A DNA stretch of 64,000 bases from Tubulanus polymorphus (lineage: Eukaryota; Animalia; Nemertea): the NCBI RefSeq assembly GCF_964204645.1, contig NC_134036.1, forward strand, positions 8,887,477 to 8,951,476. The letters are read 5' to 3'. Position numbers and translations under genes: made by a program. Below the pieces are notes generated by a model. The model searched no databases and was not told the DNA's origin. It worked only from the letters and a program-made list of their open reading frames with translations. Below, one piece after another: positions 4,104 to 56,284 of this stretch (the first letter of the stretch is position 1; every line of letters begins with the position of its first letter).

Positions 4104-4152
4104 AATATGAATAACTTCTAAAATCAATTTTAATAAAAAATTTGATATTCAA

Positions 4153-4871
4153 ATGGAAGCAAATAAGAAGTACTACTGTCCGACATGTAAAATTAATATC
4201 GATAAATCTCAAAAAGCAAGGCACAATAAAACTAAAACACATTTGGGAAATAAATTGAAATTAGAATATAAGGATGATATATTAGAAACTAAATTAGATG
4301 AATTAAAGAATGAAAAAGAAATATATAAAATTGATTTTAATTTTGTGTAATCAATCATTCAGTAACAAAAGATATAATAATGAACATTTAAAAGTCATAT
4401 TAGAAATATGATTAATGATATTTTAGGAGAAGATTATTTTGATAATGATAATGATAAGAAACAGAAGACGATTAAATGAATTAAAAATAAATTAAACAAT
4501 AAAAGACCATACATGGAAGATGTTAGAAATTATATTAATTCATTAGATAATAAAAAAGAAATAGAAATAACGGAAGCATTTAAAAGTGATATTGGACCAG
4601 CTGCTACTGAATTTAAATTTCATAAAGGAAAAACATTAGAAGAAAATAAAAAACATTTAGAAAATATGAAAAATATTATAAAAATAATTACTGATGTTGA
4701 ATACCCTAAAATTAGCATATCTTCTAAAGTTGAATTTATTAAATCTGAGGATAAACCAATATATAATATTAATTCTCATTCACAACATATTATTCCAAAA
4801 CAGCAAATAGATAAAAAATAAGATAAATGTTATAATGAAGTAAAAACTAAAATAGAAGAGGAATATTTTGA
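4153..4871 (+). pseudogene. N-terminal zinc-finger region of Polinton pPolB, frameshifted; paralog of 55154-56250
   Basis: MEANKKYYCPTC...HNKTKTH and MEDVRNYINSLDNKKEIEITEAFKSDIGPAA are near-identical to the ORF at 55154-56149. Confidence 0.8.
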
Positions 4872-5710
4872 AATTTCTGAAAGTTAAGACTCAATCTAGT
4901 GGGTGGCCATCGGGCGATATGTCCGACGATGAAAAGAGAAAACTATATAGCGGAATACGCGGCCGGGAAGGTATCCAATTAGATGGGGATAAGATAGAAA
5001 ACATTCCGCGTCTGCGAATAGTCGCAAAATTATGTCTGAACAGTAATGGGGGAAATTTGGACAAAATAGTAACAAAACTTCGGCGAAATACATTTCGGAC
5101 CTGGGGGAATTTTACGATTTGATTCTCGATTCGACGGTTGAAATTTCAGACATTATCATCTGTAATGATGAAGTACTCCGCCTACATTACAAAACAAAGT
5201 CTGAGTTTGTCAAACCAAACAGTCGAACGAACGTTGCCATAGCGGCTTTTACAACTGCTCACGCTCGACTTATACTGACATACATACATGGAGAAGCTAA
5301 GGGATCGAACCCTTTACACGGAAACTGATTCAATCATGTATTCCGTAAAGCCTGGTGGAATGGGAACCAGAAACTGGCAAATTCTAAGCCGACATGACAG
5401 ACGAGCTCGGTCGTATTTGCTACATAACTGAATTTGTTTCGGGGGCCTAAAAATACAGCCATAAAGCGCTTGATACGGAGACGAACCGTTATTCGTATGA
5501 ATGCATAGTCGTCAATTTCAAATCTATGCTTAAATTAATCACTGGCGATACCCGTGAGAAGCTTTTAGTAAATAATCCGGGTACAATTAAACGAGATATA
5601 AGGAGGGGGTAATTTATAACAAGGATGAGACCAAAACCTACCGCGCCGTGTACACAAAAAGGGCATTCGATCTGGATAAAAGATATAACACATTACCGTT
5701 TGGTTACTAG
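4872..5710 (+). pseudogene. C-terminal polymerase domain of protein-primed DNA polymerase B (different Polinton lineage)
   Basis: KTQSSGWP, KLCLNS..GKFGQ, TNVAIAAFTTAHARL, LYTETDSIMY (YxDTDS-like) and terminal TLPFGY* across several frameshifts. Confidence 0.85.
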
Positions 5711-9320: not shown

Positions 9321-9909
9321 AACTTATAAATATTATATTGAACAAGCAGAATGTAATAATATTACATCAAATGTGACACGTCACCGGGGTTCCCTATGGG
9401 TAGTAGTGGTCGTCGGGATATTTGCCACTAGAAATCAGAACTGTTAGCAGATACAACTATACTATACACAGAAACATAGAACGGAACTAACGGATGACGA
9501 TGATATGGGTCGGATTGACTGGCTGAAACTTATAAAATTTCGTTTTATATTTTAGGACAAATTGACATTATCTAACAAGTAATTAGTAGATGGCGTTTTC
9601 AGACCAGAGTACGAGAGTACGAGACACCACTCATCACAGCTAGGCCGAGAACGGTCAACAGCGTTGTGACACACGTATACAGTGAGTGCGCGTAACAACA
9701 GATGCGCGTGGATAGATCGATACAGTGAGTCGCTACTGAGAACGGTTATTAACGCGTGTGCTATTACTGTAGTACAGTGATTGCGTGTCAGCTGTGCTCG
9801 GATAAATAGATGCTGTGAGGCTTGGGTGAGAACGGTTAATAGCGCGCTTGTTATATACAAGGGGAAGTAATCCCCACTCATCACCACTCATAATTTTTTT
9901 TCCTTATAA

Positions 9910-10234
9910 ATGGGAGATAGAAAAGCATTTTTAGCAACAATAAATAACAGAATAAATCCAGCAAAATCAATTTGAAATAAAAAAGTAAGTTGATGTTAAA
10001 AAAGAAATTGAACATAAAATATTGAAATTAGAAAAGATAAAAACTAAATATGGAGAGAAAGTATCAGCTAATTTAAGCTACTGCAATGTTAGTACATCGC
10101 GAGAATTTAAAGTATTTTTACCTGATAAATGGGTTTCATTGAGTACAGAGGAATCAAAAGATTTAGAAGGATTTAAAATAATCTATCATGGAAAAAATGA
10201 AGATGGCCATCATGATTTAGAAATTGTTGATTAA
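9910..10234 (+). pseudogene. Small Polinton protein with KYG and FLPD motifs (possible OB-fold/SSB-like), disrupted
   Basis: TKYGEKV...VFLPDKW.SLSTEE...YHGKNEDGHHDLEI aligns with 56285-56624 (NKYGDKL...YLPDRF.RLSSED...GKNEKEHHEIDFE). Confidence 0.6.
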
Positions 10235-10415
10235 ATTAAAAAAACAAAATAAATTAATAAAAATAATGAATATCTAGAATCCGAAATGACTTATCTGGAC
10301 AATTTAATTGCTCCACATAGATAGACAAAAGTAGTGAGATGGTGCCGTATGGCACCCACTTGGTGATATTCAGTTAATTAAAGAAAATTATTTTTTTTGC
10401 TCTTTTTCTAAAATA

Positions 10416-10754
10416 TTAATCCATTTTTTTGGTTAATTTTGGAATTTCGGAAGTATTTTCATTTTTGATAGCAGTTGTTTCAGAATTATTAATATCATGC
10501 ATTTTATTTGATTTCTTATACCAATTACGCCCAATCAAAATGAATACAATTACAAATCCAACTGTAAAATATAGACATTTATCAAATATTCTATTATTAG
10601 AAGGAGTAGAAATAACAATATTTTCACCATTTTTATTACTTATTTTTTCTTTTACAGCTTTTTTATATTCTTGTGATTTAATTCCTAATTGCCGAGACCA
10701 TTCAATTTGTTTCGGACTTCTCGGGTTTTTCTTCACTTCTTCCACCTTTTTCAT
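10416..10754 (-). CDS. Polinton small protein with basic N-terminus and one transmembrane helix
   Basis: 112-aa ORF beginning at TAAATG; hydrophobic CLYFTVGFVIVFILIG. Confidence 0.6.
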   Translation of the reverse strand: MKKVEEVKKNPRSPKQIEWSRQLGIKSQEYKKAVKEKISNKNGENIVISTPSNNRIFDKCLYFTVGFVIVFILIGRNWYKKSNKMHDINNSETTAIKNENTSEIPKLTKKMD

Positions 10755-10817
10755 TTATTATAGAAATATTTTTACTTTCAATATTTGAAAATGTTATAAC
10801 CCCAGTTGATAATAATG

Positions 10818-11243
10818 TCATAAATCCACTAAATAATCATTTTTTAAATCGGAATATAATCTATTTTCATCTTCAATTGGTAGTATATAATTACATAATT
10901 CACTATAACCTTTTACTACATTTTCTGATATCGCATCATTAATTCTAGCTGTTCTCGCGGTTTCATAAATCTTAAATAATCTAATAATTTCATCTGATTT
11001 CATTGTATCTAATTCATTATAAGTTAAATTTTTACCGATAAAATTTTTACATTTTCCAGATGCTATTAATATTTCTAATTGATGTTTACAATAAAGATAA
11101 TATTCATAATTATTATTTGTTGTAACATTATTTAAAGCACCATCATCTGGAGTTAAGTTTGTATCTCTTATTCCTAAATCATCTAAAGTTTTTTCAATTG
11201 GAACATCACCATTTTTAGATTTTATTTTCTTTTCACCTCCCAT
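10818..11243 (-). CDS. Polinton hypothetical protein (3' end possibly frameshifted)
   Basis: 141-aa ORF beginning at TATATAAATG, within the Polinton gene array. Confidence 0.6.
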   Translation of the reverse strand: MGGEKKIKSKNGDVPIEKTLDDLGIRDTNLTPDDGALNNVTTNNNYEYYLYCKHQLEILIASGKCKNFIGKNLTYNELDTMKSDEIIRLFKIYETARTARINDAISENVVKGYSELCNYILPIEDENRLYSDLKNDYLVDL

Positions 11244-11274
11244 TTATATAACAAACAAATTAGTTGTGTTGTTC

Positions 11275-11550
11275 CAACTAGAATTCAACTAGAATGTAAC
11301 TAGAATTCAACTAGATTAACAAGCTAGTTGAAATATTGTTGTTTTTATCTATATCTTGTTAAATCTAGTTGATTTTTGTTCCAACTACCAATAACTAGAA
11401 TTCAACTAGAATGTAACTAAAAATATACTAGATTAACAAGCTAGTTAAAATATTGTTTAATTTTATTTGATTTTTGTTTCAAATGCCAATAACTAGAATT
11501 CAACTAGAATGTAACTAAATATGTAATAGATTAACAAGCCAGTTGAATTT
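11275..11550. repeat. Three ~100-110-bp intergenic tandem repeats built on AACTAGAAT
   Basis: AACTAGAATTCAACTAGAATGTAACTA...GATTAACAAGC(T/C)AGTT recurs at ~11276, 11393 and 11491. Confidence 0.8.
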
Positions 11551-12147
11551 TAATAAATTTATATTTGAATGGGTGTTGTAATCTAAATAGTAATTTTGAT
11601 CTTTTATTATTTTTCAATTTATCCATATATTCATTACGTAAATCATGTGGAATTATATCATTTTCCTCAAGTGCCATTTTTCATCTTTATTGTAGAATAA
11701 TACTACAAATCTTATATTATCCCTAAAGTCTTTAACAATTGAATTATATTTTTGATTTAAAACCCAAGTTGTTATCCCAAAATGTCTACCAGAAAAAGCT
11801 AAATAACATAACTCACTCTCTCTAATTTTTGTATCATGTAAATTTGCACAATCATCTACAATGAATAATGTATTTGATCCTTTATGAATATCAATTGCTA
11901 TTTTTATACAATTATCTAAATTTTCTATTACTGTTTTAGGATCTAATATAATAAATTTATTATTTCTAGTAATATTTCTATCATAAGTTTGATTAAATTC
12001 ATATGTTGGACAAAATAATACTATATTATCAAAATAGTTTTTATAAACAGTTTCTAATAAATTTAATATAAAATAAGTTTTTCCACAATTTGTTACGCCA
12101 GAAATTAACATTTTATGAGGTTCAAATATAAATAATTCCTTATTCAT
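11530..12147 (-). pseudogene. A32/FtsK-like genome-packaging ATPase, 3' frameshift
   Basis: Walker A GVTNCGKT, Walker B LFIVDD, GRH and Q motifs; continues in another frame past 11653. Confidence 0.9.
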
Positions 12148-13247
12148 TTATATATTTTTAATTTTACTTGATAATATCCATTCATTGAATTCATCTGGCC
12201 ATCCAACCCATTTTACTAAAGAATATTTTTTTCTTTTAACAGTTTTTGTTTTTAATACTTCTTCAATTTTATATTCTTGTTCTAGATTTTCAGTAGTTAA
12301 ACTCAATTCTTCTTCATAAAAATACCCATCAACTTCTTCACCATTTAAATGTTCTAATTTATAGACATATGGTTTTATTGTTATAACATTTTTTATTTTA
12401 TATATTTCCCTAGTAAAATTTCGATCGTATCCTTTATCAAATATCTTTTTATACTTAGAAATTCTAACATTTTGACCAACTTTAAATTTAGGTTTACCAA
12501 AATCATCTACAAGAAATGCCACATATAAATTATTCAAAACTATTTCAGCATTTTCAGGTTTTCTAGCATCAATAGGTTTCATTCCAATAGAAGAATGATA
12601 AGAATTATTATATCCTTCTATCAATTTTGGTAAAACATCAATCCATATATAAGTATTATTTGCTGTGAAATATTTCCACATTCTTGTTCATAATGTTCTA
12701 TTAAATCGTTCAACAACTGCTGCTTTTTTATCTGATTTTGTAGAAAAATAGTTAATATTATGATTATCTAAGAGTTCATGAACAAGTGAATTATCAAATT
12801 CTTTTCCATCATCAAATTGTATTTTTTCTGGCTTTAATTTATCATCCGAAAGAAATTTTCTTAAAACATTTGATGTTTGTGCAGCATCTTTTCTATAAAG
12901 TGTGAAGCTCCATACATAGCGACTAAAGATATCATTTATATTCAATATCCACCAATAATCATCATTATCTTTCTTAACATTTTTCATATCAATTAAATCT
13001 CCTTGCCACTGTTGATCTACATAACTTACCATAGTTTTACGAGATTTATATTTTCTAACAATTTTTTTATGTGTTGTATATGTTGGTTGTTCTAACATAA
13101 ATTCATTTATATCTTTATATTTAACTTAATTTTTTTTTACTTGGCGCCATATTTTTTTACAGAAGAATAAGCAACCGAACTCCTAGGGTTGTAATATAAA
13201 TTTCTTAAATATTGTTCTTTAGTATTAGGAGTTTTTTTACCAACCAT
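12148..13247 (-). pseudogene. Retroviral-like (rve) integrase with C-terminal chromodomain
   Basis: LYYNP, WQGDLIDM, DIFSRY, QFDDGKEF, AAVVERFNRTL, YNNSYHSSIGMKP, chromodomain LVKWVGWPDEFNEW; in-frame stop at 12688 and a 5' frameshift. Confidence 0.92.
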
Positions 13248-13277
13248 TTATATATCGTTAATTTTAACTTAATATTT

Positions 13278-14527
13278 CTAATATTGAATACTTTCTAATT
13301 GAGAATTCATAATATTTAATTGCGCGTCAGATATAATATAAATGTGCATTTTGAAATTTAAGCATCCTTTTTTCTTTTTCATGAATAATTGGATCCCATT
13401 TGGATCTTTTGTGTTCTGTAATTTCTTCCCAGATCCATGAAATAGATTATCTTCAGTTGTTCTAAAATCTAACCATAATGCGTATTTATTACCGGTATAA
13501 TAATCAATTTGATGAATATTACAATTTTCAGATGATTTATTTTTTTCATTCATAAAATGTTTTCTAATTTATGGCCATTGATCTATCATTCTCATTCCTT
13601 GGCAAAATATTTTATTTGCTATACCTTCAATAGTTATTTCTACTTTTGTTATTTCAGTATTATAATAATTGTCAACATTTATTGCGCCATTAGAATATGT
13701 AGCAATGGTAAAAAATATTAATATACCTTTAATAGATCTTCTTGGGAAGTTAATATTCTCATTAATTATTTCATCATTTGCATTAAAAGTTACAGTTTCA
13801 AATTTATCAATATAATCATATAATAATGGAAATCCCTGATTGTATTGAGTTTGAATTATGCTAGCAATATTTTCATCAGTTACTGTATCATATTCTAAAC
13901 ATATATTCGATAATTTATAAACCATATCTTTAACAACGCTAGATAATACAATTTCATTAACAGGAGCAAATGTTATTTCGAATATAATATCTTCTTGAAT
14001 TGCGTATTTATATAAAGGCGCATTATATTTATCAATTCCAAATCTAATGGAATTTCATATTTCCTTCCATAAATCTTTTTTATTAAATTATCTATACCAT
14101 TAGTTACTACTGCGTTATTAGCTTCTGATCTTAACTTATTTTGGTTTTCTGATTGGATGCCCTGGAATATCATATTATTTCTATTTTCTTTTGTTAACCA
14201 TAAATCTTTATAATGCGTAAATAAATTATAATCATCCAATGAGAAAACTGTTTCTGGTCCAATCTTTATAGTTAATTTTTTAATCAAATATCTTCCAACA
14301 TTATTAACAACATAATTATTATTATTGCCAGTTACTTTTATATCAGCTGATAAATAAATACTATTTGGAACATAAAAAGTATTTTGATTTAATCTCGGGA
14401 TTCTAACATATAAAGTTTCATCAGGATTAATATTAGAACGATTATGGGTAATTATATGATGAGATCTTTCTGCTTTAATAGCATGAGATATTCTTGAATT
14501 CTTAGAAGGATAAGAACTCCCACTCAT
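13278..14527 (-). pseudogene. Major capsid protein (double jelly-roll) of Polinton type, two disruptions
   Basis: About 415 codons in three pieces; VVNNVGR.LIKKL, YKLSNICLEYDTV, INFPRRSIKGILI, LWLDFRT...HGSG, HIYIISDAQLNI; typical position beside integrase and ATPase. Confidence 0.75.
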
Positions 14528-14548
14528 TTATTTGATAAAAAAAATTAA

Positions 14549-15090
14549 TTATTTATTTTTCATCATATTTACTAACCCAAAAATAATAGCACTAACAATT
14601 GTAATTAAAAGTAAAATAATATGTTCAGCAGCAAAGTTAAGAATATTCCCTGCAGATTTCAATATAAAACCAACAATTGATGCAATAATTCCGGGCAATG
14701 CTGCAGCAGATTTTTTAGATAGTTCCCATAGATATTTTGCTAATTTTTTTAAACCATCCTTAACTTTATCTTGTATAGAATTATTACTCGGGGGTTTATC
14801 GGTTTATTAGGAGTAGGTGTAGATTTCCGTGAATTTGATATTGCTAAGCCTTTTGTTGTAAATACCATAGTTACAGCTGTTAGAATTGAAAGAATTGTGA
14901 TACCTTCTAATTTAAATAATAATTTTATTCTATCTTTTAATGATATTTCAGAATTTGGTTTTATCAGCAAATCTTTAAAAATAACTTTTAATCTATTAAT
15001 ATTATAATCATATGATTTTAATAATAATTTAATTTCTTCTTTCTGTAATTCTTTGTTATATTCTAAATCATCGTTTTCTTTTTCTAAATA
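14549..15090 (-). pseudogene. 3' part of a Polinton membrane-associated protein, frameshifted and 5'-truncated
   Basis: EGITILSILTAVTMVF...; second frame KKSAAALPGIIASIVGFILK...IILLLITIVSAIIFGLV. Confidence 0.55.
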
Positions 15091-15153
15091 CATCAACGCA
15101 AATTTCAATCAATATCAAGCTGTGCAATCATTGGTATAATTTTAGTTGTATTG

Positions 15154-24993: not shown

Positions 24994-25572
24994 TGTTGGA
25001 AACTGGTGTATTTCATATAGATATATATGTTGATTTATTATATTTCTTTAGAGCTATTTCTATAATGTATTCAACATTCAGTAGTGTGATTGTACTGTGT
25101 TTGAAGCGTATTAAATCCTGCAATTCATCATTTTGTTACGCGAACTTAAACATTTTTCGCGCTTATGACCAGCACGGTATTTAAACCTGTGAATTCTTGG
25201 CTAGGCGTCAGTCTGGTTCTATATATCCCTTGTACGGCACAGTTATTGTAAGTATTTATATCAATTTAGATTTGCTGGATTTCAAACTAAAGTTTGGCCT
25301 TTTGAATGTTATTTGTCTAAATCTTGTATTTTTGTACCTTTGTAGTAAACCTCACTCACTCACTCACTCACTCACTCACTCACTCACTCACTCACTCACT
25401 CACTCACTCACTCACTCACTCACTCACTCACTCACTCACTCACTCACTCACTCACTCACTCACTCACTCACTCACTCACTCGCTTAGTCGTTCTGTCATT
25501 GTAAATCAATGAGCGTATTGGAACTGTGAATTTTTGTCGTCGTTTGTTGAGGATTTAGGACCAGGCTGAACA
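24994..25572 (+). repeat. 5' LTR containing (CACT)n microsatellite
   Basis: TGTTGGAAAC...GGCTGAACA; differs from the 3' LTR at about 6 sites outside the microsatellite. Confidence 0.95.
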
Positions 25573-25606
25573 TAGTTTGAATAACTATTACGACCGACGA
25601 TTCGCC

Positions 25607-28600
25607 ATGAGTGTTTCAAAGGATGAGAAAACGAAACAAAAAGATACTCGTACAAGTTTGGCTGGATGGCTTACCAGAGCAATTAAAGCTGTTGACGACG
25701 TTAGGATTCAAGCCGCAGTGGAGCCAGCGAAACAGAGAATCACGTCACAGTTAGGTTCGCTTATATGACGGCCAGCTCGAGATATGTGGACAGTCTAGAA
25801 AGCGACGAAGAAATCGAAAAAGCAGGATTGTGGCTAGACACGTATTATAATCGAGCGATGGAGGCGCTAGAGAAGTTGGATTCTTTCTCTTACTCGCAAT
25901 CAGAGAAAGGCCAGCAGGCAAGTTTGAATCCAAATGCGCATGAATTTCGAGTGAACCAGCCCATGGACGATGGAGAGAATTTTGTACCGGTATCATCAGC
26001 AACGCCGGAACCCAATAATCAAGATGCACCAATAAGTGGACAACCAGTTTCGTTCGTGAACATCGACAGTTGGATCGACAACTTAATCGATGAGGTCGAG
26101 ACCATCACGACCGCTGACACCGCGTCACAACCGTCTCTTGAAGATGCGTTCCTTAGAATGGAGCTCGGCAGGGACCTACCGAAAGTGGAACTCCCCATGT
26201 TCGATGGGTCGGCATTAGTTTTGCCGCGGTTCATCGAACAATTCTACCTACAAGTACATTGTCGACCGGGAATTTTAGACGCCAGAAGAATGGATCTGTT
26301 GCAGAATCATGTAAAAGGTGAGGCGAAAAAACTCATATACGGACTTGGTTATAGTGGTAGAAACTATTCTAGGGCTCTCAAAGAACTGAAATTTGTATTT
26401 GGACATCGTGTTCATGTAGCTAGAACGTATATTGATTCAATTTCTACGGGTTCTGTTGTAAATTCATACGATTCCATCTCGTTGCGTAGCTTTTATGTAT
26501 CTGTTAGAGATTACCTTATTACATTGAAACAAATGAATTATATGTCAGAAATTGGGAGCAGTGATTTGTAATTTAAAGTTACTAGGCGTATCCCAGTTGA
26601 TATACGTTCTAAATGGAATGATTTTGTACGTCGAATTTCTAGAACTCGTGATCCCACTCTATTTGATTTAGAAAACTGGCTTCGAGATTGTGTCGAGGCA
26701 GATTTTGGACCATTCTCGTTGCAAAACAAACCTAGGAAATCTAGTAATCATGTGAATGTCGCTAATGGTCCACAGAGACCACATGTATTTAATTCCAGGG
26801 TGCATGAGCCTATAAAATGTATCGTTTGTTCGGATAGCCATTCTTTGAATAGATGCAAGGCTTTTCAAGATAAGTCTGTCACTGATCGATTCACAATTGT
26901 GAAAAAATATCGTTTATGTATCAATTGTTTGAAAACAGGTCATTTTCTTGCTTCCTGCACTTCTGCTGTGCGGTGCAGAGAGGCAGGTTGCGGGAAAATG
27001 CACCATACGATGTTACATCTTCCGTCGCAGAATAGTCAGATTCCAGATAGATCTATGTTGAATATTCCGTCGTCTAATATTTCGCGTCAAAATGAGTCCT
27101 TAGAACGTGGTGATTCTGCAATTAACCAAAATGCAATTTCTACTGAAACTGATTCTAACAATGTGTTTTTCCAGGTGTTGCCGGTTACAGTTCAGGGAAA
27201 CAATGGACGTCGTATTGCCACACATGCTTTGTTAGACTCCGGTAGCGATGTTACCTTAATTCATGAAGATTTGGCTGATGAGCTTGGGTTACCGGGTGAG
27301 AAACAATTATTAACAATAAGTACCCTCAATTCTCGTGTTGCGCGTCAATCTAGGTGTGTTACTTTTACCGTTCGTGGCAATGATCCAGATTCGAAGGTTG
27401 TTAATATTTCACGAGCCTGGACTACTCATAACAATATCAATTGTCCGCCTCAGACGTTTTCTGAGGTTTCTCTCAATAAATTATCACATTTGAATGGTTT
27501 GTCGTTTACGGACTATTCGCCTTGTCAGGTTAAAATTCTCATTCGTATTTAATTCCAGGGTGCATGAGCCTATAAAATGTATCGTTTGTTCGGATAGCCA
27601 TTCTTTGAATAGATGCAAGGCTTTTCAAGATAAGTCTGTCACTGATCGATTCACAATTGTGAAAAAATATCGTTTATGTATCAATTGTTTGAAAACAGGT
27701 CATTTTCTTGCTTCCTGCACTTCTGCTGTGCGGTGCAGAGAGGCAGGTTGCGGGAAAATGCACCATACGATGTTACATCTTCCGTCGCAGAATAGTCAGA
27801 TTCCAGATAGATCTATGTTGAATATTCCGTCGTCTAATATTTCGCGTCAAAATGAGTCCTTAGAACGTGGTGATTCTGCAATTAACCAAAATGCAATTTC
27901 TACTGAAACTGATTCTAACAATGTGTTTTTCCAGGTGTTGCCGGTTACAGTTCAGGGAAACAATGGACGTCGTATTGCCACACATGCTTTGTTAGACTCC
28001 GGTAGCGATGTTACCTTAATTCATGAAGATTTGGCTGATGAGCTTGGGTTACCGGGTGAGAAACAATTATTAACAATAAGTACCCTCAATTCTCGTGTTG
28101 CGCGTCAATCTAGGTGTGTTACTTTTACCGTTCGTGGCAATGATCCAGATTCGAAGGTTGTTAATATTTCACGAGCCTGGACTACTCATAACAATATCAA
28201 TTGTCCGCCTCAGACGTTTTCTGAGGTTTCTCTCAATAAATTATCACATTTGAATGGTTTGTCGTTTACGGACTATTCGCCTTGTCAGGTTAAAATTCTC
28301 ATTGGTGCAAATGTGCCTCAAGTGCACGTGCAATTAGAGGTTAGGGAAGGCAGCTCCCAGCAGCCTGCAGCTATAAAAACCAGACTCGGGTGGTGTTTGT
28401 TTGGTAATATGTCGTATGTAAACTCCTCCGTAGCTAATGTTAATACGATAGTTTCTGACCCTCAACTTATTGGTCATTCGCTTACAAAACAGCTTGATCG
28501 TTTTTGGTCGACTGAATCTTTCGGGGTTGCTTATCCTGATCGTGTTGGTTCCGTTGAAGATCAACGGGCTTCAAAAATCCTGTCGAATACGACTCGCCTA

Positions 28601-31600
28601 GTAGATGGACATTATGAGGTCGGAATGTTGTGGCGAGACAATGAGAGTGTTTTGCCTGATAATTATTCGTTAGCTCGCAAAAGATATGATTTGTTGGTAA
28701 ATCGGTTGGCTTTTGATCAGATCATGAAAGAAGGCTATTGTAACACTCTTAATGGTTATATCACTGATGGATATGCGCGTTTATTATCTCCGTCGGAAAC
28801 TATGTTAAGAACCTCAAGAACTTGGTATATTCCCCATCACTGCGTATTTAATTCGAACAAACCCGGAAAATTCAGAGTAGTTTTTGATGCTGCTTCAAAG
28901 TCTCAGGGCTTATCACTGAACGATTTGTTAATGACAGGTCCTGATTTGCTCAATAGCTTATTTGGAGTTTTGCAGAGATTTAGATTATATGAAACAGCGC
29001 TTGTCGCTGATGTACGAGCTATGTTTCATCAAGTCAAAACATCCGAATTAGACTCCGATTCATTAAGGTTTCTGTGGCGACCAGACGCATCTACTGGCCC
29101 ACCTAGTACATATAAGATGATAGTACATATATTTGGTGCTAAAGACTCGCCTAGCTGCGCAAATTATGCTCTGAAGCGCTCGGCTTTAGATAATGCACTG
29201 GAGTTTAGTGACTTGGCAGTAAATTCTGTTATTCGGGATTTTTATGTTGACGATTTTTTGAAATCGGTTCCAGGTGATGAGGCCGCTGTGCAACTGGCAA
29301 GTGAGGTTACAGAGGTTCTTCTTAGGGGAGGGTTCCATCTGACAAAATGGATGGCCTCAAGTAAAAATGTTTTGATGCAAATCCCCCAAGCGGAGCGTGC
29401 TAATCCGTCGTTAGACTTAGATTTTAGCGAGTTACCTATTGAACGTACTTTAGGAATAAAGTGGAATGCTCAGATTGATTGTTTCGTTTTTAGACCGGTA
29501 ATTAAACCTGTCGCACCTACCAAGCGAGGGATTCTAAGCGCTGTATCTTCTGTGTTTGATCCTTTGGGATTTTTATCTCCATTTACGCTAAAGGCTAAAT
29601 GTTTGATTCAGGATATGTGGCATTGTGGTTTAGGTTGGGATGAAAAGATATCCGGTGATCTTTTTGAAACTTGGTGTGCGTGGCAAGACGAGTTGCTCTT
29701 ATTACACGATTTGAGAATCCCTCGACATCATTTGTTCTTGTCACCTTCTGCCGAAATGTGGCAGCTTAACTTGTTCTGTGATGCATCGGAACGAGCATTC
29801 GGCTGTGTTGGTTATTTGCGTTATAACACGGGTAAGTTTTTTACCTGTTCATTTCTTGCTTCTAAAACGCATCTTGCTCCCGTTAAACATCCTTTAACTA
29901 TACCGAAGTTAGAACTTCAGGGTGCTGTTATGTCAATTCGACTGGGTGAAACTTTGAAATCAGAAATTTCTGAGATCCGTGATGTTGTTTATTGGACCGA
30001 TTCTCAGACGGTTTTACGGTATATACACAATGAAAAGAAGCGTTTTAAGACATTTGTTGCGAATCGGGTGAGCGAAATTCGTGAAAGTTCATCACCTAAT
30101 CAGTGGAAGTATGTTCCTTCAAATTCAAATCCCGCTGACGATTGTACCCGCGGACTTTCTGCGGTTGCCTTATTAACATCGTCTCATAGATGGTTTAATG
30201 GCCCAGAATTTCTGCAACAAGCTGAAACTAGTTGGCCACCTCAACCTAATGTTGGTTCTATATCTGATCTAGATGAAAATATAAAGGCTGCAACAACTGT
30301 GAATCGAATTTAGGGTCTTTTGACTGTGAGGCCGCAATTAATCTCAACAATCTCGTAAATCCTGAGCGATACTCGCGTTGGTATCCCTTATTGCGAGAAA
30401 CCGCATGGGTTATAAGAGCTATCAAGAATTTCGCCTCAGTGATACCTCGTCTCAGATTTAAAAAGGTAACGACCCTTTGTTTGCAGCTCGATGAGTTGAA
30501 ATTTGCTGAGGTCTGCTTAGTGGCAGGAGCTCAACGAGAATGCTTTCCCGATGCATACCTTTCTCTTCAAGAAAGTAAGCTGAAACTTCAGCATCCTCTG
30601 AAATGCTTAGATCCGTTTTTTGACGGCGCGTGTATTCGTATTGGAGGTAGAATACACGGTGCTCGTTACGTCCCGTTAGAAGCGCGGCATCAATTGCTTT
30701 TACCTTATAATCATCATATAACAGAGCTACTAATGCGCAAAGAACATCTTCTAAATTACCACGCTGGGCCTGAGCACGTGATTGCTTCTACGCGTCAGAA
30801 ATACTGGCCAATTAAAGCTCGAGTTGTTGCTAAACGAGTAATTTCTAGTTGTTTTGGGTGCCGACGTCGTTCGGTCGTCCCTAGGATTCAATTCATGTCA
30901 GATTTACCTGCATATCGAATCATGAGTCATTGTCGACCATTTCAGCATTGCGGGGTGGATTATTTTGGTCCCATGTACATAAAAAGAGGAACGTCTAATT
31001 TGAAAGTGTGGGTTTGTTTGTTTACTTGTCTGGTAACTCGGGCAATTCATTTGGAATTAGCGGAATCTTTGGAAACTGATTCATTTCTGCTGGTTCTCCA
31101 TAATTTTATTGGTCGACGAGGTCGACCGGATGAAATGTTTAGTGACAACGGCTCGAATTTTATCGGAGCCGAAAAAGAGCTCAAAGAATTCTGAATTTTT
31201 AAGTGAAAAGGGTACAAGGTGGCATTTCAATCCACCTAGTTCTCCCCATTTTGGTGGAGCTTGGGAACGTCTTGTAAGAACGGTAAAGGTCGCTCTTAAA
31301 TCTGTCTTAAGGGGCAGATCGTTTTTTGAAAATGTTTTGCGCACAACACTGATTGAAGTAGAGGCAGTGGTGAATAGTCGGCCACTCACTTATAATAGCT
31401 CAAAACCTCAAGATTATACCCGACTTACGCCTAATCATTTTCTCCACGGAGGTGCTACATCTATTACACCCCAAGGTGTTTTTCATGAACGTGAAATTAG
31501 TAGTCGTAAGCGTTGGCGGCAGAGTCAGGTATTGGCAGACCATGTGTGGCAACGATGGTTAAGTGAGTATTTACCTTCCCTGACTGTGCGTGGTAAGTGG

Positions 31601-31807
31601 TTCACAGAGAACCGTAATGTTAGAAAGGGAGATTTAGTATTACTAGTAGAAAAAGATGTCCCAAGAGGTTATTGGCCTTTAGGTCGGATTGTCGATGTGT
31701 ATTCAGGCGCAGATAGTCGCGTGCGTACTGTTAAAGTTAAAACCGCTACGTCGGAATATATTAGACCTGTTGCAAAGATTTGTGTTTTAGAGGAGAATAT
31801 TGAATAA
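25607..31807 (+). pseudogene. BEL/Pao gag-pol polyprotein with stops, frameshifts and a 760-bp internal duplication
   Basis: Gag LPMFDG, Cys/His knuckles (CIVC..H.LNRC, CINC..GH..SC, CREAGC..HH..LH), protease LLDSGS, RT YIPHH/RVVFDA/FYVDD, RH FCDAS, integrase GVDYFGP/SDNGSNF/GGAWERL. Confidence 0.95.
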
Positions 31808-31950
31808 TTACTGGGACTGTAATAGGCTAGAATGAAATTAAATGTTGTTTGAGGTTTAGTTTCATTAGTACTGAGGTACTTTTATATTAATATATATTTG
31901 ATTATTGACCTTTTTTATTGACACCGTTTACGGATGTCAAGGAGGTGCCG

Positions 31951-32526
31951 TGTTGGAAACTGGTGTATTTCATATAGATATATATGTTGATTTATTATAT
32001 TTCTTTAGAGCTATTTCTATAATGTATTCAACATTCAGTAGTGTGATTGTACTGTGTTTGAAGCGTATTAAATCCTGCAATTCATCATTTTGTTACGCGA
32101 ACTTAAACATTTTTCGCGCTTATGACCAGCACGGTATTTAAACCTGTGAATTCTTGGCTAGGCGTCAGTCTGGTTCTATATACCCCTTGTACGGCACAGT
32201 TATTGTAAGTATTTATATCAATTTAGATTTGCTGGATTTCAAACTTAAGTTTGGCCTTTTGAATGTTATTTGTCTAAATCTTGTATTTTTGTACCTTTGT
32301 AGCAAAACCTCACTCACTCACTCACTCACTCACTCACTCACTCACTCACTCACTCACTCACTCACTCACTCACTCACTCACTCACTCACTCACTCACTCA
32401 CTCACTCACTCACTCACTCACTCACTCACTCACTCGCTTAGTCGTTCTGTCATTATAAATAAATGAGCGTATTGGAACTGTGAATTTTTGTCGTCGTTTG
32501 TTGAGGATTTAGGACCAGGCTGAACA
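31951..32526 (+). repeat. 3' LTR
   Basis: Preceded by purine-rich AAGGAGG, followed by TSD GATTT. Confidence 0.95.
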
Positions 32527-33690
32527 GATTTAGGCCTTTAATGTAGTGTGTAGAGCAATTGGAAAGCCTTAGTAGTTAGTAAGGGACTGGTTTACAATTA
32601 TGTATACGACTATTTATTTCGATTACTTTCTTTCCAGCTATTAGTGGTGGAATGAACTGGTCACTTAGGTCCTCAATTCCTTTGCCGATTCTTGCAGCTG
32701 GTGGGAATATATTTAAACCACAGTGAGCAAGTGTACCTCTCAAATTTAGCGTATCAGATGTTGTAAGTACTTGACGTTTTGTGTAAATGTTTTTTTTGTC
32801 ATGTTTAAAATATGTGGATCAGTAATCAGTCGTGCTAGTGTACATGCAGAATTGGATTCATTGTTATTATGGGATGATAATTCACGAGCATCAAGATTCC
32901 TACGATATACCCTTGATATGAAACTTTTATGAGACTTGTTTTGGAGTAAATCGAATAGCCCTTAAAATACCAATTCTACATGGCTCAACGGTCGGTGTCA
33001 ATGCTCTGCGAGACAGTGGTAATAGATGTTTCACGACAAACGCACAATTTGAATATTTATTATACTTTCTTTCACTCCTCTGTTATATCACATAACTGAG
33101 TAATTCTTACATTAGATTGCTTAATTACAGGTGGAAAGAGGTCAGATGGCATGAAAATCGACTGTGGCTGACTAATTGACGCGCGCAGATAAAGCGTTAA
33201 GGTTTCAAAAGATGTCGCCAAAATGCTTGTATCATCAAGGGTAGACAATTATCGGAAGATAAATGAAAACTCCACCTTGTTGATCGTCAGTTGATTTAGC
33301 TGTAATTATTTCGTCTGAATCAATCGACACATAATTCATAAAATCTGTGTTCTGTAGAATTTCTTTCAATAAAATAAGAATCTTTTTGACTAATTTTTTA
33401 CTTATGTATCCAGGAGTGAATTTTAATTGATCTCAAAACCAGAGAAAGCATTCTTCAAAAATTTAGAAAGTCCTAGACTCATAATCTTATTCTGTGAAGT
33501 CATTTACGGTTTTTGCTCGAATCAAGCCAAGGGCTCAGGTGGCTAAAATCCAATTCCTCACTGTCCTGTAATGCCGAGTACGACGGAGTTTACACACTGA
33601 AAAACGTTGCGCTGTGTAAGTGTAATTTGGATAAGTCAGCAATATAATGACGGCCCTGCCCTGCGCGCTCCATCTAAGACATAAACAAGT

Positions 33691-37619: not shown

Positions 37620-39792
37620 AGGTATGCTATCACTACCAGCAACTTCATGATCATGATATAGGCTCAGTAAACAACAAAAGCGAGATGATGAAGTGCCACA
37701 TCATTATCAAATATGGGCATGATGTGGTCACTAGATCTATTCTACGCCATAATGTAATACCTTTTTTGGTTTTCGGAGACAATTAGAAAATAAATTCTAC
37801 AGATGAACAGAGAACAACTTATTCCCTATGAAATGTGGAAGAATATCTTTCATGATTATCATGATCAAAAGTAAAGTGATTTAGCTGTCCTTGACCTCCA
37901 GTTGGTGTGTGTAACAATTTTCTTGTACTCAAATTTGTATTGCTCCAGCACATGTTGAATCTGTAATATTTTTTTTTTGTACATAGGAAAGTGTTTTGAG
38001 TGTAATTGCACACTGCAACTGCACAACAAAGCGATTGATATTCTCTTTGTTACTCATGGAAAAGTCATTTCTAAAAAGAAGGTATGTTGTCCTCAAGTGG
38101 TAGGCCCTAAAACATGAAAAATGTAGATTTTATTTCATTAATTCAGATATCTTTATTCCAGATCAATTTACGCTGTAAGAATTGTCAGATTAATTACGGC
38201 TTTGATAAATATGGCTCCACTGAAAAAGGATATTCATTTTATCACGAAATGAGAGACTCGATTGTTGCAACTGATGGGATAATTATTGACCACAGTCTTT
38301 ACAATTTCTAGAGATTGTTATCGTAAGTCAACTTAAATTTGAACAAAAAAATTCATGGCTTGAACTAGGTGATATATGTTATTAGATTTGTAATCTTTCA
38401 TCATTTTAGCCTCCATTCTTGGGTTTCGTTTCAAGGTTTTGCCGAAAGCTTTATTGATGCTTATATTTTAGAGAAAGGTGAGTTTTAGAGGTTTTGAATT
38501 CGTGAAATACTCACTCAGTTTATCTGTAATTATTTTTGATGCTTTAGATATTGATCGGCGTGTGTGGGCTGAAGCTTTTTGGTGGGCGGAACTTGAAACA
38601 GAATTGCGCGAACTCGACCTACACACTAAATTCAAGTTCACCAAAGATGCAGACTGTGAAGATTGTATGGTCATGATAGATAATCTTCGAAAGTGGACAA
38701 CATACGCTCGCCCACCAAGCGACTGTACAAGTGCCTGCAAAATGCCAGGTACAGTAATTCCAGTAATTGATGTACACACACTTTTGTATCTTATTTGGTA
38801 GTATCTTTTTTTTCCAAAATAATTGTTTCAAGCTGTGGAAAACTTTGAGTAACAGATGGAATTGAAAACGCAATTTTCTCATTGCATGTTTTCAGTTAAA
38901 GTAAGGGTATTGCAAATACCGGTAGATTATTTCTGTAGAAAAGGGAATTCGGTGTGACTTTAACTGTTTTTCGTGTTTTTCAGAACCTAGTTTCTGGCAT
39001 ACCATTGGTCAATTTACCGGATGTCTGCACAAATCAGCCTCTTCACAGAAAGGCATTTTGTGCAGCACATTGTAACTTTTGTGAGCAACAGAATCCACCT
39101 ATTCCGACTGGTCGTCGAGAGTTTGTCAAATATTCTGGTAAGCATTAATTTTTTAGTCACATAGGTTCAATAATTGGTTTGTTTTCAATCTCTAACTTGT
39201 TATTTTTTCAGGAGGTGGAAAGGCTGAGGAAGAATGCGAAGATGAATTGAATAATACCCATATCAATATGGACCATACCCATGCAAGATCATTTGTTGAT
39301 GGCATATGTATGTATTTGGGTGGAGTGTTCTGCTTAATGTACTCTTATTAAATGGTTGTTTGTATAACCTTTCATTTCACTTTTAAGCTGTGGGGAAAGA
39401 TCTCCTTCAACATGGTGATGCTGTAGCAAATATTATGGAAAATTGTAAAGAACTCCCCAAGTCAGGTTGTTCTAAAGATCTTGGAGAAAAAGAAACTCTT
39501 CGGAAAATGTCTCGAGGACACCAATTTATCGTTCGTGCTGGAGGCCACATATATTCCTGGTCTCCATTGTATAAGTAAGTAGAATGGTCATAGGCTTCAT
39601 TACTCGCTCTTTTATCATATTCATCTCAAACGTTCCTTCTTCCATAGGTCTGAATCGACAGGACAAGTCTTCCTAATTTTATTGTCATGGCTTTATGTCA
39701 TTTTGAAAGATCGACCGATTAAAGAGTGGTCTGATGTTTGGTTGGCGTATGACAACATGTGTCAATTAGATAAAATGAATGCGGCAAAGCTT
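37620..39792 (+). pseudogene. 5' part of an intron-containing CxC/KDZ (Kyakuja-Dileera-Zisupton-like) transposase
   Basis: Cys clusters (CKNC...Y; CTNQP...FCAAHC), GHIYSWSPLYK|SESTGQV, WLAYDNMC; GT-AG introns. Confidence 0.7.
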
Positions 39793-39891
39793 CATCACGA
39801 TAGGTAAAACACAATATCCGTGTTGACGCGATGAGGAGAGAATCCCACAATGATAATAAAAAGTCCGAAAATGAAACTTTGAGATAGTAGT

Positions 39892-39937
39892 TTATTCAAC
39901 GTTTCGACTATATCCTAATAGTCATCTTCAGGAATAA
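39892..39937 (-). ncRNA. Minimal type I hammerhead ribozyme, copy 1
   Basis: Reverse complement of TTATTC-CTGAAGA-T-GACTAT(loop)ATAGTC-GAAAC-GTT-GAATAA. Confidence 0.85.
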
Positions 39938-40245
39938 TGAGATACTACAGAAATTATGAGATATATATACAATCCAGAGACAAAGAGACTAATTCAAGTA
40001 ATCAGAGATGATACAAACTAAAGGAAAATTAACGTAGAAACAGTTACACGCTAAAATAGATTAAAGGGAAGCAAACTAAGGGGTGATTATAAACAACAAT
40101 AGTGAGTATAAATATAAATGAAACTTAAAGTCAGTAGTAAAAAGAAGACAAACTAAGGGGCACTTAAATTAAAACAAAGGTGAATACAAGTTAAGTCAGA
40201 GACGAAATTGATGAGAGAACAAATAACAAATAATCAAAGGGGAAA

Positions 40246-42654
40246 TCAAGTGTTGAGTTTAACCAGTTTACAGAGGAATTTTGATATAAGTTTATTATGG
40301 GGTGAAAAACCATTATTAAGGTTTACAACGTTGTTCGAATTTTCAATAATTAATGCAGATTCCAAAATATGTCTTCTAGTTTTATCGCTGCAAGGGTAAA
40401 CTAATTCAGCATTAGCAAAATCAAAATTGTGTGAAGTCTGAAAAACATGACTAGCAACTCCGCTTTCAGGTTTAAAGTTTTTTACATCTAATTTATGCTC
40501 TTTTATGCGTTGATTAAGATTCCGACCTGTTTCTCCTATATATACTTTGTCGCAAACTTTACAAGGTATTTTATAAATTCCACAGTTTAGGGATTCGGTT
40601 TTCGGTTTGTTGTTAATCAATATGTTACTAAGTTTATTATTGTATTTAAAGATGAGTTGTTTATTTAGTGACCGAAGAGAAACTTTAGAATTCTCGAGGA
40701 AAGGTACATACGGTACAATGATAGGCTGTTTATCGGTAGCCAACGTAGGAGTTCTAAGGTTGTTATTTCTAAAATGCGTAGTACGAGCTTTAAGTAGAGC
40801 TTTTTTCAATAGGAAATCGGGGTAGGCAAGTTTTTTGAGAGATTGGTTAATATGGTGAATTTCATCGGGTAGAAATGAGGGGTCGCAAATTCTCAAAGCG
40901 CGAAGAAATAATCCTTGAGCTAAACCGAGTTTAATATCCGGAGAAGTAAAAGAGAAGTAATGGAGGTAGGATTCAGCGTTGGTAGGTTTCCTATAAACCG
41001 CGAATTTCAAAAAGGATCCACAGTTAAAAATCAAAACATCCAGAAAAGGTATTTTACTATTAGATTCCCATTCATACGTAAAAGCCAGAGACGGGTAAAG
41101 GGAGTTTAAATATATAAGAAAGTTATCAACATTGAAGTCAAAGGGAACCAAAGCCAGAACATCGTCAACATATCTGAGCCAGATTTTAGGGTGAATATCA
41201 GTGTAAAGAGGCAATATTTCAGATTCAACATGTTCTAGGAATAAATTAGCTAGAATAGGACTTAGAGGATTTCCCATAGCGATACCGAATGTCTGTTCGT
41301 AAAAACAATTGTTGAATTCAAAAAAGGAGTCCGTCGTACAAATAGAGATAAGGTCGATGATACAATCCGTAGGAATGCCGAAGTTAATGTTAAGTGATGG
41401 TAATCTGCGTTTTAAGAAATCAAGAGTAGGTCCAAGAGGAACATTGGTAAAAAGGGAAGTAACATCAAATGATATAAATTTGTCGTTGCCAGGGATAATA
41501 TTCTTAATACGTTCAAGTAAGTGTTGATTATGGCGAAGGTGCGACGGAGAGAACGAACCGAGCACCGGAGATAACTGTTTCGCGAGAAATTTAGATAACC
41601 GGTATGTAGGAGAATTACAATTGGAGACTATAGGGCGCAGTGGAACATTATCTTTATGAATTTTAGGCAATCCATAGATATATGGTAAAGAGGGAAGACG
41701 TGAATGGAACTTATTCAGAGTTTCTTTAGCGGAGGGGAAACGTTTAATAATATCCGAAAGACTTCTGTTGAAATTAGCTTGCATACGAGGAAGAGGATTC
41801 GATTTAAGTTTCTTATAAACACCAGGATTATCCAAGAGAGATTGCATTTTAACATTATAATTATCCAGATCTAAAATCACAATCTTGCCACCTTTATCAG
41901 CCTTAGATATTTTAATAGTCTTTAACTTCCGTAGTTCTTGGAGGGCGAGCCGAAATCGACGGGGTAGATATTCAAAGAGGTTCCTGTTGAGTTGATCGCA
42001 AACAGCCTGTAGATTCATGAATATAAAGTTATAGTCCAAACTGTTCGGAGATGATTTGCGATATTCCAATTGGGTGACAAAGTCTAAAACATGTTTATCT
42101 TGATGAGGAAGAGAAAAATTCAAACCGTAGCCGAGAAGTTGACACTGAGTAGAAGATAACGTGGTTGAAGACAAATTTACTATGTTTTCGGTGTTGCTAA
42201 ATCTAGTCCAAGGGCTGGAATCAATGAGTTTATTCAGTTGGTTGGTAAGATCCACGGACTTTCTGTGCTGATGATATTTTCCAGAGCCTTGAACAATAGT
42301 GGAGAGCGATTTCCAGAGGAATAGGTCCGGTACGTGTGACTTCAAATAATTTTGAGATTGACGGAATTTGTAGAACTGATAGTTACAGTCTTCCTTAGCA
42401 CGATCTATAGCGAATTTGAGTTGCTTGTTAGCTTCGGGTGGAAACGCAGAGCTGGAGTCGTATTTCCAAATCCAAGAACGTGATCGCGGAACCACTTTTT
42501 CGGCATAACACTCCTGAAGGAACTTGACTTTACTTTTAGCAGTCCTGGATTTGATATAGCATTTCTCATAATTTCGGAAGCTAGCGACGAGGTACGGGAA
42601 CGTGAAGAAGAAGAATTTTAATACGATATTTCGATCCGTGGGTAGCATGATCAC
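40246..42654 (-). CDS. Penelope/Poseidon-type reverse transcriptase plus GIY-YIG endonuclease, intact
   Basis: KADKG, YGLPKIHK..PLRPIVS, SFDVTSLFTNVP, GIAMGNPLSP, RYVDD, GIYKIPCKVCDKVYIGETGR...EH. Confidence 0.97.
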   Translation of the reverse strand: MIMLPTDRNIVLKFFFFTFPYLVASFRNYEKCYIKSRTAKSKVKFLQECYAEKVVPRSRSWIWKYDSSSAFPPEANKQLKFAIDRAKEDCNYQFYKFRQSQNYLKSHVPDLFLWKSLSTIVQGSGKYHQHRKSVDLTNQLNKLIDSSPWTRFSNTENIVNLSSTTLSSTQCQLLGYGLNFSLPHQDKHVLDFVTQLEYRKSSPNSLDYNFIFMNLQAVCDQLNRNLFEYLPRRFRLALQELRKLKTIKISKADKGGKIVILDLDNYNVKMQSLLDNPGVYKKLKSNPLPRMQANFNRSLSDIIKRFPSAKETLNKFHSRLPSLPYIYGLPKIHKDNVPLRPIVSNCNSPTYRLSKFLAKQLSPVLGSFSPSHLRHNQHLLERIKNIIPGNDKFISFDVTSLFTNVPLGPTLDFLKRRLPSLNINFGIPTDCIIDLISICTTDSFFEFNNCFYEQTFGIAMGNPLSPILANLFLEHVESEILPLYTDIHPKIWLRYVDDVLALVPFDFNVDNFLIYLNSLYPSLAFTYEWESNSKIPFLDVLIFNCGSFLKFAVYRKPTNAESYLHYFSFTSPDIKLGLAQGLFLRALRICDPSFLPDEIHHINQSLKKLAYPDFLLKKALLKARTTHFRNNNLRTPTLATDKQPIIVPYVPFLENSKVSLRSLNKQLIFKYNNKLSNILINNKPKTESLNCGIYKIPCKVCDKVYIGETGRNLNQRIKEHKLDVKNFKPESGVASHVFQTSHNFDFANAELVYPCSDKTRRHILESALIIENSNNVVNLNNGFSPHNKLISKFLCKLVKLNT

Positions 42655-42747
42655 GATAGGTAAAACACAATATCCGTGTTGACGCGATGAGGAGAGAATC
42701 CCACAATGATAATAAAAAGTCCGAAAATGAAACTTTGAGATAGTAGT

Positions 42748-56250: not shown

Positions 56251-56284
56251 TTTAATACTAATTTTTTTATTAAAATTGATTTTA

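Follow-up and report, generated by a model that had tools for sequence, protein, structure and literature searches.

What reads the genes of an animal Polinton? We met this question in the nemertean Tubulanus polymorphus, in a 64,000-nt stretch of contig NC_134036.1 (hereafter the window), where a decayed Polinton-type element within 9402-15090 has every surviving gene start embedded in the same short word, ATAAATG. The element is multi-copy in this genome and retains the Polinton hallmarks of an rve integrase, a double-jelly-roll (DJR) capsid and an A32-like packaging ATPase. The copy in the window is a dead member of a multi-copy Polinton-type virus family. The literature is described as undecided on whether animal Polintons live as autonomous viruses of the nucleus, as transposons or as virophages, and no virions have been seen for them (10.64898/2026.06.19.733378).

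A candidate left terminus is the word AGTAGT (9402-9407, plus strand), the usual Polinton end; no partner arm was found in the window, and many reads of other copies diverge left of ~9580-9600. A putative late-type promoter follows (9892-9912, plus strand), composed of a T-run, a spacer and TATAAATG. It leads into gene 1 (9910-10234, plus strand), which encodes a small protein with 70% identity to L001:125-466 (L numbers denote metagenome loci, introduced below) and is broken by a frame change near 9965 and one stop. The other genes lie on the minus strand. A small protein with a hydrophobic stretch (10416-10754, 51% to L001:9951-10340), for which Pfam gave no family above the cut-off, starts at ATAAATG (10752-10757). 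The neighboring conserved protein (10705-11243, 57% to L001:9410-10027, start TATAAATG at 11241-11246) is broken near 10820 and has homologues in L003, L004, L013, and L019. Three imperfect copies of an AT-rich repeat of ~98 nt (family D11, 11242-11554) lie between the end of the ATPase gene and the next promoter. The A32-type ATPase itself (11549-12147, Pfam Pox_A32 E 2e-12, 80% to the L001 ATPase) starts at TATAAATG (12145-12150) and has a frameshift near 11680. The rve integrase with its C-terminal chromodomain (12148-13247, Pfam rve E 4e-9, Chromo E 1e-4) starts at TATAAATG (13245-13250) and is broken by a frameshift near 13155 and a stop at 12688, and the DJR major capsid gene (13278-14527, 70-72% to the L001 capsid, start ATAAATG at 14525-14530) by a frameshift near 14025 and a stop at 13569. 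The element breaks off in a gene of ~480 aa (14558-15090), of which only the 3' part remains, with a hydrophobic C-terminal stretch and 71-74% identity to residues 307-484 of L001:4328-5782; its start and 5' end are lost, as is the right end of the element, and read depth has fallen off by position 15188. Matches to relatives are colinear and interrupted only by small frameshifts and stops, in agreement with the first-pass annotation, which had seen no introns.

For the capsid, the model of an intact relative (P0002, pLDDT 55.5) gave 72 viral Foldseek matches at E<=0.001, mostly to major capsids (best E 5e-12), and those to virophage capsids were no better than those to other DJR capsids. The Capsid_N domain was found in 15 of 75 members of the capsid family. 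The broken copy holds no protein-primed PolB (pPolB); the capsid-linked locus L010 contains the 3' end of a PolB whose homologues bear PF03175/PF02945. Two further remnants occur in the window. One, at 54395-56624 (minus strand), joins a gene-1 homologue (start 56624) to the 5' half of a pPolB (start 56250), which aligns with P0213 and P0219 from residue 1 onward at 63-64% identity. The other (4150-4880, plus strand), associated with the inverted-repeat pairs I4 and I10, is a more decayed 5' piece of the same PolB.

The starts of the main element, at 9910 (plus strand) and at 10754, 11243, 12147, 13247, and 14527 (minus strand), are each preceded by ATAA, and four of them (9910, 11243, 12147, and 13247) read TATAAATG, so that our re-count reproduced the pattern first reported from the letters alone. 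Homology to intact relatives places five starts firmly and that at 9910 nearly so: residue 1 aligns at 14527, 12147, and 11243, residue 4 at 10754, and the N-terminal part of the integrase from 13241-13217, while the 9910 gene aligns only from 9971 (residue 28) and its start rests on position and on N-terminal likeness by eye. Since the seventh gene lacks its 5' end, it is fair to speak of six of six surviving starts. The GC content of ~25% raises the possibility of chance in AT-rich DNA. Yet TAAATG occurs at only 8 of 199 other ATGs in 9850-15130 (4.0%) and at 8 of 139 first ATGs after an in-frame stop (5.8%), giving probabilities of 4e-9 and 3.6e-8, respectively, for six of six; the earlier statement that this is unlikely by chance therefore holds at about 4e-8 against a 4-6% background. 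Across the whole window, 93 of 2167 ATGs are TAAATG. A comparison with host genes, also proposed in the first-pass annotation, went the expected way, with TAAATG at 0 of 4 distinct host-side and retroelement ORF starts in the window, although this is a very small control.

We therefore turned to family copies, namely 17 metagenome loci (L001-L017) carrying the same capsid family, in which starts were called blind from closed ORFs of >=100 aa. TAAATG was found at 52 of 66 called starts. Elsewhere it is rare, at 91 of the 2541 remaining ATGs (Fisher p 5e-57) and, among first ATGs in non-gene frames, at 91 of 1634. It persists at 12 of 15 starts in the loci of 36-44% GC (L006, L010, L011, L015, and L016). 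These comparisons refute chance in AT-rich DNA, to which we assign a practically negligible probability. The TAAATG start is family-wide and positionally conserved across diverged relatives. The loci are not independent, as L002/L003, L007/L008, and L015/L016 are close pairs, and no locus is complete. Locus L017 and the broken, 55% GC locus L019 were uninformative. With the comparison drawn within this one capsid family, the motif might be common among Polintons generally.

Some relatives use other words. In the sister lineage L012/L013, TAAATG was found at 0 of 7 starts, and TATA stands a few bases before most ATGs. Starts in L018 use TAAAATG, as do both starts of the second remnant in the window. 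A quick capsid tree did not separate the branching of L012, L015/L016, and the main clade, and so sets no order for gain or loss of the motif.

The layout around the motif distinguishes starts from other occurrences of the same word. We compared 53 start and 73 non-start TAAATG in 13 loci. A T at position -12, the ninth base upstream of TAAAT, was present at 47 of 53 starts and at 22 of 73 non-starts (p 2e-11); positions -18 to -12 were free of G/C at 42 of 53 versus 17 of 73, and G followed at +4 in 39 of 53 versus 16 of 73. The T peak lies at the ninth base (88%, against 73% at the tenth), and four of the window's own six starts have T at -12. This arrangement resembles vaccinia late promoters, in which TAAAT followed by G overlaps the start codon and a conserved T lies ten bases upstream (PMC11980589), with a T-rich block at about that distance and a less constrained spacer in both; the element's peak is one base nearer TAAAT than the wording of that review. 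The earlier reading of TAAATG as poxvirus-late-promoter-like is hence borne out by the layout. Genes of salmon gill poxvirus are also described as marked with TAAATG (PMC4542343), and the TAAAATG of relatives resembles the intermediate-class TAAA. The element has the motif at nearly all of its genes, with the integrase and a putative 5' part of PolB among them, whereas the late and intermediate classes of vaccinia number 38 and 53 genes, respectively (PMC5595341).

The same word could instead act in translation on long polycistronic RNAs, through stop-start coupling or as an in-frame stop insulating each start. The TAA of the ATPase start motif (12148-12150) is indeed the stop of the integrase frame 12148-12681, as the first-pass annotation had stated; a comparable overlap exists in L001, and many tandem gaps are short. 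However, the TAA is the stop of the upstream ORF in just 1 of 56 TAAATG starts, and stop-start coupling is therefore not the explanation. The motif is also found at first genes and on both genes of divergent pairs, 19, 28, 28, and 30 bases apart (L003, L007, L008, and L009), and the equally serviceable TAG-ATG and TGA-ATG go unused. The seven non-TAAATG starts in the 13 loci point the same way: in three of them TAAAT ends 0-1 base short of the ATG (L005, L010, and L016), and the rest comprise TAAAAT (L004), broken-gene pieces (L001 and L014), and a motif-less start (L006), a pattern more readily explained by an initiator than by a stop-plus-start. A translational role would leave the upstream A/T block unexplained, and T at -3 is a poor context for translation initiation in animals. 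We consider such a role very improbable. ATGs upstream of the starts are about as common as expected (42 versus 44.8 +/- 6.1), one lying within 60 bases in 27 of 52 genes, and long 5' UTRs are therefore unlikely.

The explanation that we favor, and consider likely on the strength of the motif and its layout, is that TAAATG and the T-rich block ~10 bases upstream act together as a late-type promoter, and that the RNA polymerase which uses it belongs to a co-infecting helper virus of poxvirus-like kind. Each gene would carry its own promoter of ~25 bases; transcription would begin inside the AAA, and polymerase slippage would add a 5' poly(A) leader. The message would then read A...AAAUGG, and the genomic T at -3 would never meet a ribosome. 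The polymerase would come from a large DNA virus of poxvirus type that lives in the cytoplasm; inside the factory of that virus, the element would copy itself with its own pPolB and package itself with its own capsid and ATPase, and the rve integrase would store copies in host chromosomes between helper infections. Mavirus, which has a pPolB and integrates with an rve integrase, stores integrated copies in Cafeteria between helper infections and borrows the late promoter of its giant-virus helper. In post-replicative vaccinia mRNAs, slippage produces a poly(A) leader, which in most cases makes up the entire 5' UTR (PMC5595341), and virophages (Mavirus/CroV, Sputnik, and Gezel-14T) are described as carrying their helper's promoter motif (10.1101/2022.07.28.501842). 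The element is likewise a small capsid-coding virus with a putatively helper-type promoter motif; unlike Mavirus, it has an animal host, a Polinton-type capsid and a poxvirus-type motif. Of the earlier proposal of a virophage-like satellite read by a large DNA virus, what stands is a family-wide, conserved, vaccinia-late-like signal that is no artefact of AT content or stop-start coupling; any such transcription would concern the family and not the dead copy in the window.

Helper-based transcription competes with a nuclear alternative, in which host RNA polymerase II, probably guided by TBP or by a factor that the element encodes, reads a compact promoter and yields nearly leaderless mRNAs, making a helper unnecessary. 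The family is chromosomal and multi-copy, its integrase has a chromodomain, and the roughly one hundred or more chromosomal copies would fit autonomous germline spread at least as easily as helper-driven spread. Many starts contain TATAAA, and L016 has a zinc-ribbon ORF. One ORF of that locus (L016:4144-4746), which has some likeness to a VLTF3-type late factor, does not count as evidence: Pfam gave nothing at E<=10, there were only two homologues, no PDB sequence match was meaningful, and the poor model (pLDDT 39.5) had no fold match at E<=0.001; tenth among its matches, at E 1.4, was an entomopoxvirus protein named 'putative late transcription factor'. VLTF3 homologues are reported in coral polintoviruses (PMC11131425). 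Against polymerase II, the TATA boxes that this enzyme uses lie ~24 bases ahead of the point where transcription begins (PMC7163114), and the transcription start would therefore fall inside the ORF. Among the 46 ORFs of these incomplete loci, Pfam found no TBP/TFIIB match and no RNA polymerase or transcription factor above the cut-off, a Pox_Rap94 match on L013 (E 0.019) being taken as noise; because no locus is complete, an element-encoded factor may yet exist. A weaker point is that coding strands show no shortage of AATAAA (151 seen versus 157.6 expected, 3.2 per kb), but host-side ORFs show none either. We regard transcription by polymerase II as unlikely. The poxvirus early terminator TTTTTNT is scarce in coding strands (19 seen versus 41 expected), but we rejected this as specific evidence since T/A runs are depleted in general, with ratios to expectation of 0.66 for TTTTTN[ACG], 0.59 for T5, and 0.41 for A7.

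A helper polymerase need not be that of a poxvirus. It could belong to another nucleocytovirus with an AAA initiator, or to a linear element of the cytoplasm such as the pGKL plasmids of yeast. pGKL1/2 have their own poxvirus-like RNA polymerase and, unlike our element, no capsid and no integration. They are, similarly to our element, AT-rich linear pPolB elements, and such yeast virus-like elements are described as having a TAAAN initiator and slippage-made leaders (PMC6211774). The TATA before ATGs in L012/L013 resembles the late initiator TATA of ASFV (PMC7163114), and helpers may therefore differ by lineage. Nevertheless, the fused TAAATG and the T block ahead of it are a match specific to the late class of vaccinia promoters, and the pGKL upstream conserved sequence, described as related to poxvirus early promoters, was not seen in the position table of the loci. 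A non-poxvirus helper is, in our estimate, quite improbable.

Returning to the poxvirus-like helper, known elements offer partial parallels. The capsid of Polinton-3_NV/N1A_NV is presumably of the kind found in our element. The capsids of AHEV_PLV2 and Ca_PLV1 branch beside that animal clade, and Polinton-like viruses travel in entomopoxvirus occlusion bodies as proposed poxvirus hyperparasites (Barth et al. 2024, PMC11296320). AHEV_PLV1/2, CBEV_PLV1, and Ca_PLV1 are Polinton-like elements with a proposed poxvirus association; they are described there as encoding a cysteine protease and as lacking the rve integrase that our element has. The main text of that paper had 0 matches for promoter, motif or TAAAT, and its supplement had two incidental TAAATG and none of four capsid-family peptide words. 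Mavericks/Polintons (Polintoviricetes; adintoviruses, PMC8502044) share the rve-chromo integrase, A32 ATPase, DJR capsid, the pPolB of relatives and multiple copies in an animal genome, but Pfam found no adenain-type cysteine protease in the 46 ORFs of our incomplete loci, including all 16 of the 11.5-kb L001. The element may be one of the animal elements said to fall outside both main Maverick groups (10.64898/2026.06.19.733378). Scanning a viral contig collection with the capsid piece, three capsid alignments, ATPase, integrase, and L016 ORF gave no relative, nor did a phage collection, and an Atlas search with the conserved 206-aa gene reached scores of only 0.81. A literature search, with most subscription papers and bioRxiv supplements outside its scope, gave no report of the TAAATG start motif in Polintons; no entry was found for a matching helper virus.

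If the late-signature reading holds, the integrating-virophage life style of protists would extend to animals, and these elements would indicate hosts in which to seek poxvirus-like viruses; a family-wide signature makes the helper idea cheaply and directly testable. More tentatively, a widely distributed lineage of animal Polintons, counting 1178 capsid clusters at E<=1e-10, could be integrating virophages of poxvirus-like viruses whose start signals record the helper of each lineage: TAAATG for late-type, TAAAATG for intermediate-type, and TATA for asfarvirus-type. Were this so, such Polintons would be genomic footprints of undiscovered invertebrate poxviruses, and might also give animals a heritable defence against viruses.

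Reads from further copies in this species bear on the motif from both sides. In its favor, ~517 reads of such copies show no variant of >=2% at 14525-14532, the capsid start motif included, with variable positions at 14533, 14534, and 14536-14538. One presumed RNA read run gave a single 171-base piece. Against it, 341 reads have loose ends at 13220, which suggests that the integrase 5' region differs in many host copies, with a start that does not resemble TAAATG.

The element at window ~9400–15,100 (GC ~25%) encodes a capsid, an rve integrase with a chromodomain, and an A32 ATPase, and four further genes have no assigned function; the predicted structure of P0002, an intact relative of the capsid, matches viral double-jelly-roll capsids with modest confidence (pLDDT 55.5). 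The first-pass annotation had reported six gene starts, at 9910 (+), 10754, 11243, 12147, 13247, and 14527 (−), each embedded in an extended TAAATG. Indeed, ATAA precedes the ATG at all six and TATAA at four, and the reading frames bear out that the integrase terminates in the TAA preceding the 12147 ATG. The arrangement is as improbable by chance as had been claimed, with a computed probability of 4 × 10−9 to 4 × 10−8; between 9850 and 15,130, TAAATG occurs at 8 of the 199 remaining ATGs and at 8 of 139 other first ATGs following a stop. Homology comparison placed residue 1 of intact relatives at 14527, 12147, and 11243, and residue 4 at 10754, while the N-terminal part of the integrase aligned at 13241–13217 and the alignment of the 9910 gene to its relative began only at 9971.

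Since stops or frameshifts break five genes (capsid, integrase, ATPase, the small-protein gene starting at 9910, and the 11243 gene) and the right end is missing, this copy is dead. The host nevertheless carries others: in a DNA run labelled as the same species, the element stretch recruited 28,679 reads, 14,051 at 90–95% identity and 366 at 99% or higher, a ratio from which we infer, as a rough figure, ~100 or more copies. Among ~517 reads from these other copies, no variant reached 2% in the TAAATG region 14525–14532 and five nearby upstream positions varied, although most of these reads are clipped at 14515, so that positions near the clip end are under-reported. Immediately behind the 9910 start (window 9914), 369 reads of other copies diverge into unlike sequence, and 250 skip window 9627–9873; these breaks may reflect gene cassettes exchanged at a common start signal. 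Three imperfect repeats of ~98 nt lie upstream of the 11243 promoter (11242–11554), where the corresponding gap in L001, the longest related metagenome locus, spans 325 bases.

The TAAATG signature is real and strong across the capsid family. In 17 loci from a metagenome scan, with starts called blindly as the first ATG of each ORF that was closed, not a shadow, and at least 100 aa long, it was present at 52 of 66 starts versus 91 of 2541 other ATGs; these loci contain near-duplicates, yet cover several well-supported subclades with 34–100% capsid identity. In L001 it marks 14 of 15 starts, the single miss being the downstream fragment of an integrase that is split, and in loci of 36–44% GC it marks 12 of 15. 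There are counter-examples: the sister lineage L012/L013 lacks the motif, and L018, from the wider capsid clade, has TAAAATG at all three long ORFs. Some relatives also encode a deoxynucleoside kinase (L001:10343–10981, starting at TAAATG; L006:2898–3377; Pfam dNK, E 1e-31), which in the PolB-bearing relative P0208 is fused to PolB.

Judged by base composition, the start signal is a promoter-shaped element extending beyond these six letters. Across the 52 starts, a block nearly free of G/C (−18 to −12) with a T maximum at −12 (88%) is followed by a less constrained spacer (−11 to −8) and then W-W-A-TAAATG; higher-GC loci keep the sharp −12 maximum (83%). We compared starts with non-start TAAATG in 13 loci; L002, L012, L013, L017, L018, and L019 were set aside because they were duplicates, lacked the motif, or fell outside the clade. 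Starts were enriched for T at −12 (47/53 versus 22/73), a pure A/T block (42/53 versus 17/73), A at −4 (46/53 versus 28/73), and G at +4 (39/53 versus 16/73), where the A/T contrast may partly be one between intergenic and coding DNA. In 1 of 56 cases the TAA doubles as the stop of an upstream gene, divergent genes 19–30 bases apart each have their own motif, a search of the loci for avoidance of ATGs upstream of starts found none, and several exceptional starts retain TAAAT with a displaced ATG; together these suggest transcription from the motif. Animal ribosomes favour a purine at −3, and G at +4 alongside T at −3 would be sensible if the T were absent from the message. That the motif is a translation signal is very improbable.

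In vaccinia, late promoters have TAAAT and then G, overlapping the start codon, and a conserved T ten bases upstream amid other Ts (PMC11980589), and the poly(A) leader made by slippage is usually the entire 5′ UTR (PMC5595341). The family differs in that its T maximum falls on the ninth base upstream rather than the tenth. We consider it probable that the family would be transcribed late in infection inside the factory of a putative poxvirus-like helper, multiply with its own pPolB, ATPase, and capsid, and persist through its integrase. If so, it would be a variant of the virophage kind not known before. PolB is absent from the copy at ~9400–15,100; a PolB 3′ end is present on the capsid-linked locus L010. 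Pfam detected no RNA polymerase or transcription factor among 46 ORFs of the loci. L001 plus PolB would occupy ~16 kb, near the size of a 16.9-kb contig that carries a cluster-mate of the L001 capsid and presumably PolB (linked by equal size only), which would leave little space for a multi-subunit polymerase. A 201-aa ORF, L016:4144–4746 (−), opens with a four-cysteine ribbon at its N terminus and is helical in its second half, a layout we take to resemble the VLTF3/A2 late transcription factors; Pfam and fold comparison gave no confirmation.

Host polymerase II might instead read this compact promoter, which we regard as unlikely. Less likely still is a non-pox helper polymerase reading the motif. 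In this respect, the sister lineage L012/L013 has TAAATG at 0 of 7 starts and TATA a few bases ahead of most ATGs, the TATA(G/A/C) there being similar to the ASFV late initiator; a switch of helper type is possible.

Sharing of helper promoters is described for protist virophages in 10.1101/2022.07.28.501842, and Polinton-like viruses associated with entomopoxviruses in PMC11296320, where searching the complete article and its supplement by term found no promoter analysis. The word “promoter” is likewise absent from the available portions of studies on a coral polintovirus (PMC11131425), a 2026 PLV framework (10.64898/2026.06.19.733378), and egoviruses (10.1101/2024.03.23.586382). Literature searches returned no report of TAAATG in Polintons, so the signature is apparently unpublished there, a remark in supplements or subscription papers being conceivable.

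At E ≤ 0.001 the capsid family comprises 2518 clusters, of which 1178 remain at E ≤ 1e-10, with members on contigs of up to 1 Mb. The L018 and L019 contigs sit in two prokaryote genome bins, probably as contamination. Within the window, homology revealed two further remnants, from a related Polinton: one at 54395–56624 (−), with a homologue of the 9910 gene and a zinc-finger/endonuclease-VII-type PolB (54395–56250), and a PolB remnant at 4150–4880 (+). Both starts of the former (56624 and 56250) are TAAAATG, and the stretch upstream of them is closely like that of the second L001 gene. The window is animal DNA, as seen from two GPCRs of the rhodopsin type, a Penelope-like ORF (RT/GIY-YIG), and a Pao element. 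The Penelope-like elements (39788–49521; 800 aa) form a tandem array with a 2856-base period plus an inverted copy and, being 99–100% alike, were inserted very recently. The Pao/BEL LTR element (24994–32547) has ends 99% identical and 6957 bases apart, and contains an internal exact duplication at 760-base spacing.
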